A stretch of 64,000 nt of DNA, taken from sequence record PQ478073.1; one strand, written 5' to 3'. Positions 49,572 to 60,842 of the stretch are shown here, in pieces; the stretch's first letter is position 1, and every line of letters starts with the position of its first letter. The stretch comes from a phage. The notes beneath the pieces are model-generated. The model saw only the letters and a program-made list of their open reading frames with translations, searched no databases and was not told the DNA's origin. A program made the position numbers and the translations under genes.

Positions 49572-49835
49572 ATGAATATTAAGTATTTTGCGACGCGTGA
49601 ACAAGCTCGGATCGCCGCTCGCCAGGACGGGGCAACGTTTAAAGATATGGGAGCGGGATCGGCAAGTGGTGAACGTTGGGCCATTGTAAAGCGTAGTACA
49701 GCCAGATCATTACAGTACTGGTTAGCGGCCTTAAAAAGTCCCGATAGTGTATCGCGTCGAGTGGTAGAAATAAAGCTCGACCGAAAGGGCAACCGCGTGA
49801 CCGTGTACCGTACTAAAAAGATTGCAGTACTATAA
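49572..49835 (+). CDS. hypothetical protein, family X (FATREQARI), paralogue of 60447..60842
   Basis: MNIKYFATREQARIAARQDG...RKGNRVTVYRTKK. Confidence 0.55.
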   Translation: MNIKYFATREQARIAARQDGATFKDMGAGSASGERWAIVKRSTARSLQYWLAALKSPDSVSRRVVEIKLDRKGNRVTVYRTKKIAVL

Positions 49836-49843
49836 AAAAGTAC

Positions 49844-49902
49844 TTGCAAACTATGTTTAATGGCGTATAATGTTTTACATCGAGAGCGGGAACACTTCCC
49901 GC
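49844..49902 (+). promoter_or_regulatory. early-type promoter plus 5'UTR hairpin
   Basis: TTGCAA 49844-49849; TATAAT 49866-49871; hairpin 49883-49902. Confidence 0.65.
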
Positions 49903-49923
49903 CTATAACCTGGAGTAATAAAA

Positions 49924-50154
49924 ATGACTAATATGTATATGACTGAAGTTAAAACCGTAAAAGATACTACCACGAATAAAACTACTTACTTACAGCGGAT
50001 CTGTGGTGTATGGCAACGTATCAGCAAATCAAAGTACTTTAAATTAACATCATATGCAAATCGTTCGGATTCATTCAGTACTGAAATAAAAGGTAATAAA
50101 GTACACCAATACGGCACTTATTATTATTACAGCCTGGACGCGATTGCAGTATAA
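49924..50154 (+). CDS. hypothetical protein (76 aa)
   Basis: GGAG RBS. Confidence 0.5.
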   Translation: MTNMYMTEVKTVKDTTTNKTTYLQRICGVWQRISKSKYFKLTSYANRSDSFSTEIKGNKVHQYGTYYYYSLDAIAV

Positions 50155-50236
50155 GCAGTTTACAAATCTTTACAATTGCCGGTATTGACTTATTTTGTCA
50201 GTACTGGCATAATGTATTCATTGGCAGATAAGCCGT

Positions 50237-50311
50237 AGCCCATAGGGTGCGGGAGTGTATCTATAGAAAAAGTAGTTTATTACAGTTACAATTGTGCACC
50301 CGGTGGGTTAG
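50237..50311. promoter_or_regulatory. inverted pair of ACCCA-N-GGGTG palindrome motifs
   Basis: CCCATAGGGTGC 50240-50251 and GCACCCGGTGGG 50295-50306. Confidence 0.4.
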
Positions 50312-50403
50312 CTGTTGTCATGGGGTATATTATGCCAGTACTTGATAATGCTGTCAATACTTTTTTTACTATTCAGTACTGAAAACTATTTTTAAAAAGT
50401 ACT

Positions 50404-50430
50404 TGCAAACTATGTTTAAAGGCGTATAAT
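50404..50430 (+). promoter_or_regulatory. early-type promoter TTGCAA-N15-TATAAT (upstream of tandem pair)
   Basis: TTGCAA 50404-50409; TATAAT 50425-50430. Confidence 0.6.
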
Positions 50431-50437
50431 GTTTTAC

Positions 50438-50512
50438 ATCAGGACGGGGAACGAAATAAGTAACTTCCCGTTAAGTAGCCCAGGAGTAAGGCACACGAAA
50501 AACTCCCCTGAT
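50438..50512 (+). ncRNA. candidate structured leader RNA, copy 1
   Basis: 75-nt element between two promoters; closing stem AUCAGG/CCUGAU and GGGGAA/UUCCCC hairpin; near-identical copy at 59588-59663. Confidence 0.4.
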
Positions 50513-50520
50513 AAAATAGT

Positions 50521-50548
50521 TTGACAAATGTTTTTAAAAGCGTATAAT
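50521..50548 (+). promoter_or_regulatory. promoter TTGACA-N16-TATAAT
   Basis: TTGACA 50521-50526; TATAAT 50543-50548. Confidence 0.6.
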
Positions 50549-50580
50549 ACTTACATCAACTACTGAATGAGGGTTACAAA

Positions 50581-51192
50581 ATGAAAACTATCACTACTAC
50601 TACTTTCGTTATGGATTTTTCTGAATTGAACGCAGAACAAAAAACGTCAGCTATCGAACTGGTTCGGGAACGTGAAAAAAACTCAAACGACAATTATTTT
50701 TCTGAAAGTGAAATTGAATACTATAAAGAAACAGTACTACCGGAATATGGCATTAATGACGCTGAAATACAATTCAGTGGCTTTTGGTCCCAGGGTGACG
50801 GTGCATCAATCAGTACTGACCACGTTGACGCAGTGAAGTTTTTACGCAAGGTAAGAGCATTAACTAAGTATCGCTCAATCCGTCACTTGCTGAATGAAGA
50901 TGATTTGGCGATGAGTGTAAAGCGTTCGCACTCCCACTACTCGCATGAGAATACTGTAAGCGGGTACATTGAATCGGCTTACACTGATTTAACCGCAAAA
51001 CAAGAAACGTTAGTTAATGAGCTTGAGGAACTACTCACTGAAACTATTCGTGAATTATCCCGCAAGTTGTACCGTGATTTAGAGAATGCATATGAGGATC
51101 AATTCACTACTGAAAACATTACGGCACTGATTGAGGGTAACGAGTATCAATTCAATGTTATTGATGGCGTAGTGGAATCAATCGAATATTAA
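50581..51192 (+). CDS. hypothetical acidic protein (203 aa)
   Basis: GAGGG RBS. Confidence 0.6.
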   Translation: MKTITTTTFVMDFSELNAEQKTSAIELVREREKNSNDNYFSESEIEYYKETVLPEYGINDAEIQFSGFWSQGDGASISTDHVDAVKFLRKVRALTKYRSIRHLLNEDDLAMSVKRSHSHYSHENTVSGYIESAYTDLTAKQETLVNELEELLTETIRELSRKLYRDLENAYEDQFTTENITALIEGNEYQFNVIDGVVESIEY

Positions 51193-51284
51193 TTTAAAAA
51201 GTACTTGCAAACTAAGTTTAAAAGCGTATAATACTTTATATCGAGAGCGGGAATAGTTCCCGCTACTAATGAGGAATACTACAA

Positions 51285-51449
51285 ATGAATACTTTTACCT
51301 TCGCTCAATTGAACGCCCTGGATGTATTGTCTGATGCTTTGCGGGATGCAACTGAAAGCGGTTTATTTGACAATGTTGACATTCACCCTGATGTAATTAA
51401 TAATTTTTGTGATGCTATCGCAGAAGTACTGGAAGATCTAAAAAAATAA
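51285..51449 (+). CDS. hypothetical protein (54 aa)
   Basis: Promoter + hairpin + GAGGAA RBS cassette; below track cutoff. Confidence 0.5.
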   Translation: MNTFTFAQLNALDVLSDALRDATESGLFDNVDIHPDVINNFCDAIAEVLEDLKK

Positions 51450-51537
51450 TAGAAAGTACTTGCAATTAGTTTTTAGTACTGTATAATAGTTTACATAGAG
51501 GGGAGAAATGGTTCTCCCTGGTAATGAGGAAAATAAA

Positions 51538-59259: not shown

Positions 59260-59405
59260 AAGAATTTTTATTCGAAGTAGTGTTTCAAGGTGTCGGTAGT
59301 AACCAACTGATTCGCTCAAGTGGTTATAATGTTAACCAGGCATGGAATAACATTAAACAAATGTACCCGAACGCTATCACATATCGCAACCCAAAACAAG
59401 TTTAA
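59256..59405 (+). CDS. hypothetical protein (49 aa)
   Basis: ATGA overlap; ends before terminator. Confidence 0.4.
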   Translation: MKEFLFEVVFQGVGSNQLIRSSGYNVNQAWNNIKQMYPNAITYRNPKQV

Positions 59406-59419
59406 AAAGAATTAAAAAA

Positions 59420-59447
59420 GGGATTGACTCCGGTCAGTCCCTTTGCT
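59420..59447 (+). terminator. terminator GGGATTGACTCCGGTCAGTCCC + TTT
   Basis: Hairpin family copy with compensatory stem changes. Confidence 0.6.
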
Positions 59448-59470
59448 ATTATATATGCATAGAAACAATC

Positions 59471-59485
59471 TAACCCACAGGGTGC
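59471..59485 (+). promoter_or_regulatory. palindromic operator-like motif TAACCCACAGGGTGC
   Basis: Same motif family as 55785, 57466, 62421. Confidence 0.4.
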
Positions 59486-59553
59486 ATAAATGTATCTATT
59501 ATATGCTGGTGGCTAGTACTATCAAGTACTGAAAACTATTTTTTAAAAAGTAC

Positions 59554-59581
59554 TTGCAAAGTATCACGATAAGCGTATAAT
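59554..59581 (+). promoter_or_regulatory. early-type promoter TTGCAA-N16-TATAAT
   Basis: TTGCAA 59554-59559; TATAAT 59576-59581. Confidence 0.6.
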
Positions 59582-59587
59582 GTTTTA

Positions 59588-59663
59588 CATCAGGACGGGG
59601 AACGAAACAAGTAACTCCCCGTTAAGTAGTCCAGGAGTAAGACATACGAAAACCTCCCCTGAT
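59588..59663 (+). ncRNA. candidate structured leader RNA, copy 2
   Basis: About 90% identical to 50438-50512; same position between tandem promoters. Confidence 0.4.
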
Positions 59664-59671
59664 AAAATAGT

Positions 59672-59699
59672 TTGACAATAGAAATTAAACGAGTATAAT
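59672..59699 (+). promoter_or_regulatory. promoter TTGACA-N16-TATAAT
   Basis: TTGACA 59672-59677; TATAAT 59694-59699. Confidence 0.6.
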
Positions 59700-59729
59700 A
59701 CTTACATCAACCACAAAGAGGAATACAAA

Positions 59730-59930
59730 ATGAAACATTTTACTTTCGGTGTAGTAGGCTTTACAGTATCCAGCGGCGTTTATAAATCAGAACGCGGTGC
59801 TAAAAATGCAGCAAGTCGGGCGTATGGTTCACAGCGTGACTTACAGGTCGGTTATATTAGTAACATTAATAACATGTTTATTCCTGTTGCACAGCGTAAA
59901 GCGGGTAACATGAAATGGGAAACAATTTGA
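59730..59930 (+). CDS. hypothetical protein (66 aa)
   Basis: AGAGGAA RBS. Confidence 0.55.
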   Translation: MKHFTFGVVGFTVSSGVYKSERGAKNAASRAYGSQRDLQVGYISNINNMFIPVAQRKAGNMKWETI

Positions 59931-60023
59931 TAAAATAGTTTGACAATAGTTTTTAGTACTGTATAATTAATTACATCAAGTGAGGGGAATGGTTCCCCTC
60001 CTAACAAAAAGAGAGAAATTAAA

Positions 60024-60347
60024 ATGACTATGATCCTTACCCAGAAAGTAGAACTGAAAATTGTAACCTCCTTTGACATTAAAGTTAATCGGTGGACAGA
60101 TAGCCACGGCAATACTTACCACTCCTGCTACGTGTCCGCATTGATTGGTGATCGCTGGGAGGATTTAGGACACGAAACATTTACATACGGTTACGGTACA
60201 CAAGGCGAATACACGGGCTTGGAGATCATTAAAGAAACCGTTATAGGTTTCAACCCGAAAGAGAAAGTACTACACAGAATTGAGGATGAGATCAACAAAG
60301 AAATTACAGTTCGTTACTACGATGTAAAACGTAAGAAAGACATGTAA
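60024..60347 (+). CDS. hypothetical protein, family Y, paralogue of 54175..54498
   Basis: RWTDSHGNTYHSCYVS...FTYGY...KRKKDM. Confidence 0.6.
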   Translation: MTMILTQKVELKIVTSFDIKVNRWTDSHGNTYHSCYVSALIGDRWEDLGHETFTYGYGTQGEYTGLEIIKETVIGFNPKEKVLHRIEDEINKEITVRYYDVKRKKDM

Positions 60348-60446
60348 TAGAATCCATTTAAAGTACTATTTGACATTGCCCAGATAGTACTTTATAATAG
60401 ACTCTAACTTGTAGTACTAATTAACTTAACTAATAGGATGTACACC

Positions 60447-60842
60447 ATGATTACTAAATTCTTCGCTACCCGTGAACAAGCTCGCATCGTTGCTCGTGAA
60501 GAAGGTGAAACATTTAAAGACATGGGCAAAGATGCACCGAAAGGACAACGCTGGGCGGTACAGTTCAAAGAGATCTCTGATATTGTGAATTCACCTGAGC
60601 CTGTACTTACTGAAGCAGAACTGAAGAAAGCTCAAGAACTGGCTGAAGTACTGAACGCTCAAGATGACTTCTTGAAAGGTTCTGATATTGAAGTTACAGT
60701 TAACGCAAATGCATGGACTCACGCGGATCACCTGGCAAACCTTAAGCGTCCAAGTGAACTGATTCGTAACCAGAAAGAGATCCGTCATGACCGTAAAGGA
60801 AACCGTGTAACAGTATACAGTAAACGCCGCCAGGTTATCTAA
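60447..60842 (+). CDS. hypothetical protein, family X, paralogue of 49572..49835
   Basis: MITKFFATREQARIVAREEGETFKDMG...RKGNRVTVYSKRR. Confidence 0.55.
   Translation: MITKFFATREQARIVAREEGETFKDMGKDAPKGQRWAVQFKEISDIVNSPEPVLTEAELKKAQELAEVLNAQDDFLKGSDIEVTVNANAWTHADHLANLKRPSELIRNQKEIRHDRKGNRVTVYSKRRQVI

Follow-up and report, generated by a model that had tools for sequence, protein, structure and literature searches.

The early region of the phage in sequence record PQ478073.1, from which we analysed a 64,000-nt stretch (the window), holds two pairs of paralogous genes and numerous near-identical stretches of regulatory DNA, raising the question of whether part of the region was duplicated as a block or whether its small genes move by another route. 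A sequence-only reading of the window had favoured segmental duplication, with regulatory modules and genes shuffled as units. Our analysis of the early array (approximately 48.4–64 kb) retains the shuffling and rejects the block. The array is probably a series of cassettes, each a regulatory module with its open reading frame (ORF), whose modules act as recombination points, and the window belongs to an Asteriusvirus (121Q/PBECO4-like) jumbo coliphage carrying this early, host-takeover-type array inside a direct terminal repeat (DTR) of ~21 kb.

Regulatory modules and paralogous genes in the early array

The genes concerned are small (mean 84 amino acids), occupy 69 % of the array and are nearly all hypothetical:

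48790–63980 (+): array of 41 small co-oriented genes, ORFs with a Shine–Dalgarno site and an ATG

The self-comparison that the sequence-only reading had proposed (a dot-plot, run as self-BLASTn of 48–64 kb) returned 131 off-diagonal high-scoring segment pairs (HSPs), nearly all intergenic. The similarity extends beyond promoter consensus, as that reading expected, and comes from a regulatory-module family instead of a duplicated segment. Repeats at E ≤1e-5 account for 27 % of the region and for 73 % of the intergenic DNA. Among the longest matches are a compound leader (50367–50586 versus 59517–59735, 87 % identity, 221 nt), a compound block present in three copies and the leader pair at 54086 and 56590. 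Repeat family D1, with 19 copies of ~95 nt, defines a module of ~100 bp. An nhmmer profile built from these copies gave 22 matches (E ≤2.4e-8), all on the plus strand and all within 48.7–63.8 kb, and no match below E=1e-4 elsewhere in the window (48 kb):

48693–48790, 49154–49251, 49831–49929, 50389–50485, 51193–51288, 51449–51543 (+): modules 1–6
51916–52006, 52233–52327, 52697–52762, 53536–53631, 53853–53941, 55257–55347 (+): modules 7–12
55852–55948, 56289–56382, 58409–58496, 58676–58770, 59540–59636, 59938–60027 (+): modules 13–18
62479–62577, 62792–62875, 63333–63429, 63669–63761 (+): modules 19–22

The module opens with an A-tract, which is UP-like, and an AGTACT overlapping the −35 box (TTGCAA/TTGACA), followed by a 16–17 nt spacer, TATAAT, GTTTT-ACATC and a 7–9 bp hairpin with a G-run at its start and a C-run at its end; a further 8–15 nt lead to the Shine–Dalgarno site and the ATG. 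A consensus scan detected 85 promoter-like sites versus 56.8±8 in shuffled sequences, among them nine perfect (12/12) promoters (TTGACA-N16/17-TATAAT) on the plus strand. The hairpin formed at −11 to −15 kcal/mol in 12/12 module leaders folded separately. Among 50 different module leaders, taken from the window, five Asteriusvirus relatives and RaK2, compensatory double changes were present at 5/5 consensus pairs, in 3–10 sequences each. These hairpins lack a T-run and are not called by a terminator scan; terminator-like hairpins overlapping a −35 box are restricted to the compound elements at 55724–55751, 59417–59444 and 62362–62389.

Variants of the module lack the hairpin (the leader at 54086 and 56590), carry a terminator hairpin around the −35 box or form compound leaders with two promoters:

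50367–50586 (+): compound leader of ~220 nt with a module promoter, an enlarged-loop hairpin, a second hairpin, a second perfect promoter and a Shine–Dalgarno site
59395–59735 (+): compound intergenic block with a terminator hairpin holding the −35 box of a promoter, a CCCAYMGGGTGC leader unit, a module promoter and a long leader; its first ~210 nt recur in the two copies below (76–77 % identity)
55708–55951 (+): copy of the block (terminator/promoter, CCCAYMGGGTGC unit, module promoter)
62341–62578 (+): third copy of the block (76–77 % identity in the three-copy comparison with 55708–55951 and 59395–59602)

Four consecutive modules (49157, 49834, 50393 and 51195) share one 16-nt spacer that has no known sequence requirement, and the module at 49834 is a clean chimera, identical to module 49157 over its promoter half and to module 48697 over its hairpin half. 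The shared neutral spacer and the chimeric module indicate common descent and recombination, rather than consensus alone. The modules constitute a genuine repeat family, restricted to the early region, whose members are mosaics of one another.

Three sets of twins had been picked out from the letters of the window, namely a leader pair, a promoter pair and a terminator pair, and all three were borne out by alignment:

54079–54181 (+): promoter-leader without a 5′ hairpin (TTGACA-17-CATAAT with TG), upstream of 54175
56583–56687 (+): second copy of this leader, upstream of gene 56681–56860 (93 % identity over 105 nt)
61129–61219 (+): promoter-leader of gene 61216–61434, with the promoter at 61156
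61409–61495 (+): promoter-leader of gene 61492–61734, with the promoter at 61435 (80 % identity to its twin over 91 nt, with an identical 32-nt core, TTGACAGTACTCAAATGTTTTAGTA)
52626–52677 (+): intrinsic terminator
53352–53404 (+): second copy of this terminator, a direct repeat (92 % identity over 53 nt; the hairpin, AGCCCACCTTAAACAGTGGGCT, is the same in both and precedes a T-run)

The two terminators bracket a cassette made up of promoter 52697–52762 and gene 52862–53344. All of these twins are ordinary members of regulatory-module families and not remnants of one block.

The proposal of a block duplication had started from two pairs of genes, both of which are genuine paralogues:

49572–49835 (+): X1, short paralogue of family X (PHROG 8127), 87 amino acids
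60447–60842 (+): X2, long paralogue of family X (PHROG 8127), 131 amino acids
54175–54498 (+): Y1, family Y (PHROG 6246), 107 amino acids
60024–60347 (+): Y2, family Y, 107 amino acids
49481–49571 (+): promoter and leader of X1, homologous to those of X2 (60342–60446)

X1 and X2 (BLASTP: 36 % identity, E=2e-20) are conserved in their N- and C-terminal parts and are distinguished by an insert of ~45 amino acids in X2, while Y1 and Y2 (38 % identity, E=1e-27) align end to end without gaps over all 107 residues. Neither PHROG has an assigned function, and X and Y returned no Pfam match. An all-against-all protein comparison of every window ORF yielded no further genuine pair in 48.7–64 kb, where the remaining ORF–ORF matches are spurious ORFs reading through promoter repeats. 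A putative third copy of Y, fEgEco12 g033 (324 nt), was rejected, its translation being unrelated. Using tblastn, we detected two X loci per Asteriusvirus genome (four where the record holds both terminal repeats), and a single X locus, matched only over the ~50-residue N-terminal domain, in RaK2, K64-1, GAP32 and Yersinia/Erwinia/Serratia jumbo phages. Outside Asteriusvirus, Y was met only as a 42 % relative in EJP2; two Y loci are the rule in Asteriusvirus genomes, but six genomes have one, the missing copy in UB being Y1, which is removed by a deletion (54193–54575).

Had a recent segmental duplication copied a multi-gene block with X, Y and regulatory DNA, the other repeats would be its remnants. 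The X and Y families have exactly two members each, Y2 and X2 are adjacent, and X1 and X2 share homologous upstream DNA that reaches back to the stop codon of the preceding gene, all of which fits such an event. However, only single genes are paralogous, and the DNA similarity lies in the regulatory modules, with no pair of collinear multi-gene segments of even divergence. The only off-diagonal match to reach into coding DNA joins the promoters and 5′ ends of the two X genes (49481–49651 versus 60342–60526, 70 % identity); Y1 and Y2 show no DNA-level HSP at E ≤1e-5, and the regions upstream of them are of different module types. X1 precedes Y1 by 4.3 kb, whereas Y2 directly precedes X2. Both copies of each gene occupy orthologous sites in nearly all Asteriusvirus genomes, where orthologues are 84–99 % identical as opposed to 36–38 % between paralogues, and the high-identity repeats fall into families of 3–22 members, not pairs. 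The inverted order, the unequal spacing and the two levels of identity exclude a single block, and recent segmental duplication is accordingly a very improbable account of the region. Rather, the low identity, opposite order and orthologous sites indicate that X and Y are old, separate single-cassette duplications.

For X, the shared upstream DNA indicates that promoter and gene were duplicated together. The X2 promoter is perfect (TTGACA-17-TATAAT, 60370–60398); that of X1 has a decayed −35 box (TTGACA to TCATTT) and a 3-nt deletion in the spacer. The duplication would have followed the split from the RaK2-like relatives, which have one X, and preceded the Asteriusvirus radiation. Both pairs are probably independent products of cassette recombination that subsequently diverged, with Y1 occasionally lost.

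Cassette differences between sister genomes

The 12.5 kb around the X/Y region matched 143 phage records, nearly all of them ~350-kb Escherichia/Salmonella Asteriusvirus jumbo phages (111 from Escherichia jumbo phages). The closest match was 121Q (92.6 % identity, 68 % of the 12.5-kb query), and no record was collinear over at least 80 %. The first 1600 bases of fEgEco12 and vB_Ec-M-J align with window positions 46996–48591 (97 % identity); as these genomes start with the DTR, the window from 46996 to its end lies inside the repeat, a location established here through homology alone:

46996–64000 (+): left part of the ~21-kb DTR, 46996 corresponding to base 1 of fEgEco12 and vB_Ec-M-J

The DTR measures 20,993 bp in fEgEco12, where it was confirmed by restriction digests (PMC13070987), and is annotated as 21,525 bp in vB_Ec-M-J (record OQ718158). 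By this homology it should extend to ~68 kb, past the window end.

We compared window positions 48.4–64 kb with 121Q, JP4, vB_Ec-M-J, fEgEco12, slurp01, UB and Salmonella phage SD-2_S15 using chained BLASTn blocks; CMSTMSU was left out of the breakpoint set, its record being flagged UNVERIFIED and sparsely annotated. Between the window and these seven relatives, we identified 17 distinct events of at least 60 nt:

49162–49241, 52615–52639, 53596–53615, 54075–54151: sites of whole-gene insertions in relatives
55264–55312, 58681, 59940–60026, 62792–62884: sites of further whole-gene insertions in relatives
52002–52238: window gene missing in 121Q, which has a 77 %-identical copy one slot upstream
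54175–54498: Y1, missing in UB
58057–58413 (+): GNAT acetyltransferase gene (Pfam/PHROG), missing in slurp01 and SD-2_S15
61216–61434: gene missing in SD-2_S15
63425–63688: gene missing in 121Q
51194–51453: replacement slot with four alternative contents
53944–54075, 59714–59932: further replacement slots
55030–55047: intragenic length difference (event 17)

In the sister genomes, whole cassettes have been inserted, deleted, replaced or moved, with breakpoints inside modules and chimeric modules left behind. The proposal that modules and genes are shuffled as units is upheld by these events, whose ends lie in repeated modules, and two of the repeat pairs already singled out (54086/56590 and 61156/61435) themselves serve as junctions. 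In 8/17 events, the extra DNA of the longer allele is bracketed by two module copies, whereas there is a single copy in the shorter allele, of which 40–93 nt align with both. Two junctions are exact left/right hybrids. The window sequence at 59915–60035 corresponds to the 121Q module left of gene 302 as far as the −10 box and then to the right-hand module from the hairpin to the ATG. In SD-2_S15, from which gene 61216–61434 is deleted, a single module combines the upstream part of the 61156 copy with the downstream part of the 61435 copy. The crossover positions differ, lying between the −10 box and the hairpin in the former and in the spacer/−10 region in the latter.

The leader without a hairpin offers a further example. 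121Q carries three copies of it, two of which flank an extra 213-nt gene (gene 281) just upstream of Y1, and in vB_Ec-M-J two leader copies at the 54079–54181 site likewise flank an extra 213-nt gene. We rejected 121Q gene 281 as a paralogue of 56377–56589 (56 % nucleotide identity, approximately background) or of 56681–56860 (no BLASTP alignment). As gene 281 is unrelated to the window genes, the leader-flanked site reflects cassette insertion or deletion and not gene duplication.

We propose that the array consists of mono- or bicistronic cassettes, each with a ~100-bp regulatory module, one small ORF and sometimes a terminator. The modules would act as strong early promoters for the host RNA polymerase, and the 5′ hairpin may stabilise or otherwise mark the mRNA. 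Their mutual homology (40–100 nt, 75–100 % identity) would provide a substrate for homologous recombination or slippage by the replication–recombination machinery of the phage, and exchange between modules could then lead to loss, gain, replacement and occasional duplication of cassettes. To judge from the junctions, shuffling is probably a by-product of homologous recombination between these 40–100-nt homologies and not a site-specific process.

Breakpoints fell in intragenomic repeats, which make up 29 % of the region in this test, in 28/34 cases (uniform null, P=1.4e-10), and 13/17 events had both ends in repeats. Several observations nevertheless weigh against this account of the array. 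When only intergenic positions are considered, the enrichment is not significant (16/18, P=0.10), as repeats make up the bulk of the intergenic DNA and indels that interrupt genes are lost to selection; the case therefore rests on the junction homology and the two chimeric junctions. Four events lie outside the module model (52615–52639, 54193–54575, 55030–55047 and, as regards its left end, the event at 58010), and all 17 are unpolarised, each being readable as an insertion or a deletion. The hairpin begins 6–8 nt into the predicted transcript, which has a conserved predicted start, ACATC. Protection by a 5′ hairpin in E. coli tolerates no more than four unpaired nucleotides before the stem, so that the ~6 present here make a stabilising role uncertain. 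In addition, we found no experiments on transcription, mRNA stability or recombination of these phages in the Asteriusvirus/RaK2-group literature.

The result for intergenic positions is what would be expected if the repeats reflected convergent or purifying selection on promoter, 5′ untranslated region (UTR) and terminator signals, the indels arising by random illegitimate recombination and being filtered to intergenic positions. The conserved positions do include functional −35, −10, UP and Shine–Dalgarno elements. Selection on signals does not, however, account for neutral spacers and leaders that are identical between copies, for modules that are clean chimeras of one another, for the junction homology and the hybrid junctions, or for a 105-nt leader pair in which the 93 % identity includes the non-consensus parts, and we consider this explanation unlikely. 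A dedicated site-specific system recognising the GGGG...CCCC hairpin, AGTACT or the CCCAYMGGGTGC box, with modules as attachment-like sites comparable to integron attC, appears somewhat more doubtful still. The hairpin with its conserved G-run and C-run resembles structured recombination sites, an idea also raised for the PeSL elements of T4-type phages (PMC2839356), AGTACT is enriched 13–24-fold, and the units of promoter plus CCCAYMGGGTGC are found in either orientation, as portable elements would be. Such a system would be expected to cross over at one place, yet the two mapped crossovers occupy different positions in the module; the ten proteins scanned, of the 41 array genes, included no integrase, transposase or homing endonuclease, and AGTACT is also enriched outside the early region and within genes in all three frames, showing that it is not specific to cassette borders.

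Leader units, AGTACT and the surroundings of the array

The CCCAYMGGGTGC boxes belong to nine units of ~100 nt. In each unit, a sigma-70 promoter lies ~27 nt ahead of CCCAYMGGGTGC, which in turn precedes a TGTATCTAT-like box. The units occur in both orientations:

48105–62435: CCCAYMGGGTGC motifs at 48105 (−), 48321 (−), 50239 (+), 50307 (−), 51837 (−), 55786 (+), 57468 (+), 59474 (+) and 62424 (+)

Motifs 50239 and 50307 are convergent. In the same interval (50182–50360), two near-consensus promoters, TTGACT-17-CATAAT (+) and TTGACA-17-CATAAT (−), converge from ~145 bp apart, each driving a CCCAYMGGGTGC unit, and their predicted transcripts would overlap by ~100 nt.

The unit is conserved in RaK2, GAP32, CBB, BF, fHe-Yen9-04, 121Q and three uncultured jumbo contigs, and the exact 26-nt core of the motif was found only in jumbo phages of ~345–378 kb, from at least five genera, and in a single contig of 109 kb. 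Ahead of CCCAYMGGGTGC, 47/57 distinct units have a small hairpin whose loop is A-rich, with 27 different stems (maximum of 45 units in 200 shuffles); it is missing from one subclass of units and is supported by the positional scan against shuffles only. RNAalifold returned just a 4-bp mini-hairpin for these units, with no compensatory changes, and no Rfam match was obtained. A covarying outer closing stem (AGATA/TATCT) was considered and dropped, as the downstream box in other genera is conserved in sequence and not complementary. Two abundant non-coding RNAs have been mapped to the terminal repeat of PA5oct, a related phage (PMC7318152), making an RNA role for the CCCAYMGGGTGC units plausible though unproven. 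We regard the units as candidate small RNAs or leader elements.

AGTACT, found in both promoter classes, has 281 copies in the window versus ~22 expected (13-fold), the next palindromic hexamer reaching 85. Genes contain it in excess in all three frames (3 per kb in 1–44 kb), its density rises to 5–10 per kb in the early region, and early-region loci of RaK2, CBB, GAP32, BF, fHe-Yen9-04 and uncultured relatives show a 17–24-fold excess. The AGTACT enrichment and the conserved leader unit are signals shared across the clade, for which a literature search, including one on AGTACT over-representation in phages, returned no published explanation. As a tentative suggestion, the modules may encode an undescribed, clade-specific regulatory code of the RaK2-like jumbo phages with two elements. 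One could be a promoter-proximal RNA of ~60 nt, with an A-rich-loop hairpin, CCCAYMGGGUGC and a UGUAUCUAU-like box, of which each terminal repeat has about nine copies and which would act as a nut/put-like antitermination or processing signal or as a small-RNA family. The other, AGTACT, could be bound by a phage protein with a role in marking or organising the DNA of the phage.

Pfam and PHROG scans, which took in the ten proteins mentioned above, together with orthologue annotation, gave domain hints in only three array genes: the GNAT gene listed above, its neighbour encoding a DksA-like zinc finger and a weak kinase-like match. One further gene has an annotated orthologue:

57736–57993 (+): DksA/TraR-type zinc finger gene (Pfam/PHROG), adjoining the GNAT gene
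61766–62350 (+): gene for a kinase-like protein, weak match (Pfam/PHROG)
52323–52622: gene for a 99-residue protein with a signal-peptide-like N-terminus, its fEgEco12 orthologue being annotated as 'protein spackle'

An Rfam scan of 45–64 kb (E ≤1) returned two chance-level matches only, to a miRNA and a snoRNA model, and a search for tRNA and tmRNA genes found none.

The flanks of the array have repeats of their own. Approximately 2 kb without plausible genes (46700–48700) straddle the terminal-repeat boundary at 46996. This stretch is dense in TCAGTACTGA (10 of the 14 window copies lie in 44–52 kb), contains short repeats such as GGCTAAACGGCTAGA/GGATGGCTGGATGGCTAGACG at ~47.8 kb and has outward-directed promoter units. 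Directly upstream of the first early promoter, at 48536–48694, is a 53-nt tandem repeat of two identical copies and a third at 68 %, each beginning with CAGTACTGAATAATAGTACT. Just outside the terminal repeat, 42300–46700 (+) holds ~15 tandem paralogous genes of ~60 amino acids (30–59 % identity), with homologous arrays, annotated as hypothetical, in slurp01 and 121Q. Further upstream, at least 12 paralogous genes encoding ~300–400 amino acids (23–41 % identity, strongest over the N-terminal ~90 residues) fill a minus-strand block with reversed GC skew at 28400–41800 (−).

Comparison with known systems

Two known arrangements resemble the array in part. The host-takeover module of Bacillus phage SPO1 reportedly lies in the terminal redundancy, and coliphage T5 has its pre-early region in the terminal repeat (first-step-transfer DNA). 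As in the array described here, many very small genes, nearly each with a strong early promoter for the host polymerase and a strong ribosome-binding site, are packed into a long terminal repeat; however, the emphasis in those systems has been on function (host shut-off) and not on recombination at repeated regulatory modules, and no sequence homology with them is expected. The morons of lambdoid phages are likewise said to be autonomous promoter–gene–terminator units, present or absent between otherwise collinear genomes. Unlike the array, they are single insertions, scattered and with unrelated regulatory sequences, whereas the regulatory parts of the cassettes described here form one homologous tandem family that supplies the homology for recombination.

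The closest parallel is provided by the PeSLs (promoter-early stem-loops), mobile regulatory cassettes described in T4-type phages (Arbiol et al. 2010, PMC2839356; Comeau et al. 2014, PMC4122927). These ~100-bp elements combine AT-rich DNA with a sigma-70 early promoter and a stem-loop, typically GGGG...CCCC. They cluster between ORFans, and their recombination with one another accounts for insertions, deletions and replacements between close relatives; it has been shown to release mini-circles, and chimeric junctions are known (PMC2839356, PMC4122927). The array shares the sequence-level and comparative features: its modules are intergenic, ~100 bp long and AT-rich upstream, have a near-consensus sigma-70 promoter and a GGGG...CCCC stem-loop ahead of the Shine–Dalgarno site and ATG, and are concentrated between small ORFans (22 strong matches in a 15-kb array), with ORF indels and replacements bounded by modules and chimeric modules at the junctions.

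There are also differences. The carriers here are Asteriusvirus and other RaK2-like jumbo phages, which are Caudoviricetes without a T4-type family assignment and not of the Tevenvirinae type, RaK2-like phages being just distant relatives of the T4-likes in a portal tree (PMC5259590). Most hairpins of the array lie inside the transcript (~+7 to +30) and lack a T-run, a position outside the five described PeSL subclasses, suggesting that they are probably 5′-UTR structures and not terminators or attenuators as shown for PeSLs. A second module type fuses a terminator hairpin with the −35 box (59417–59452 and its two copies), and the whole array lies within a long DTR. The genome paper on CBB reported 18 RpoD-like promoters with UP-like elements; we found no promoter or PeSL analysis of these modules in the Asteriusvirus/RaK2-group genome papers, and the only jumbo-phage paper found to cite PeSLs does so in its reference list alone.

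The comparison has practical consequences. The promoter and 5′-UTR model supplied here can be used to call ~40 early transcription units, and short paralogue pairs with near-identical leaders should not be taken during annotation of this region as evidence of recent duplication. It also offers a testable account of how genomes of ~350 kb come to differ mainly in small hypothetical genes, extending to the RaK2/121Q jumbo phages the PeSL idea that regulatory cassettes provide portable homology for swapping small accessory genes with their expression intact. Judged by its modules and junctions, the array appears to be a case of PeSL-like cassette shuffling, known from T4-type phages, that occurs in a new lineage and within a terminal repeat.

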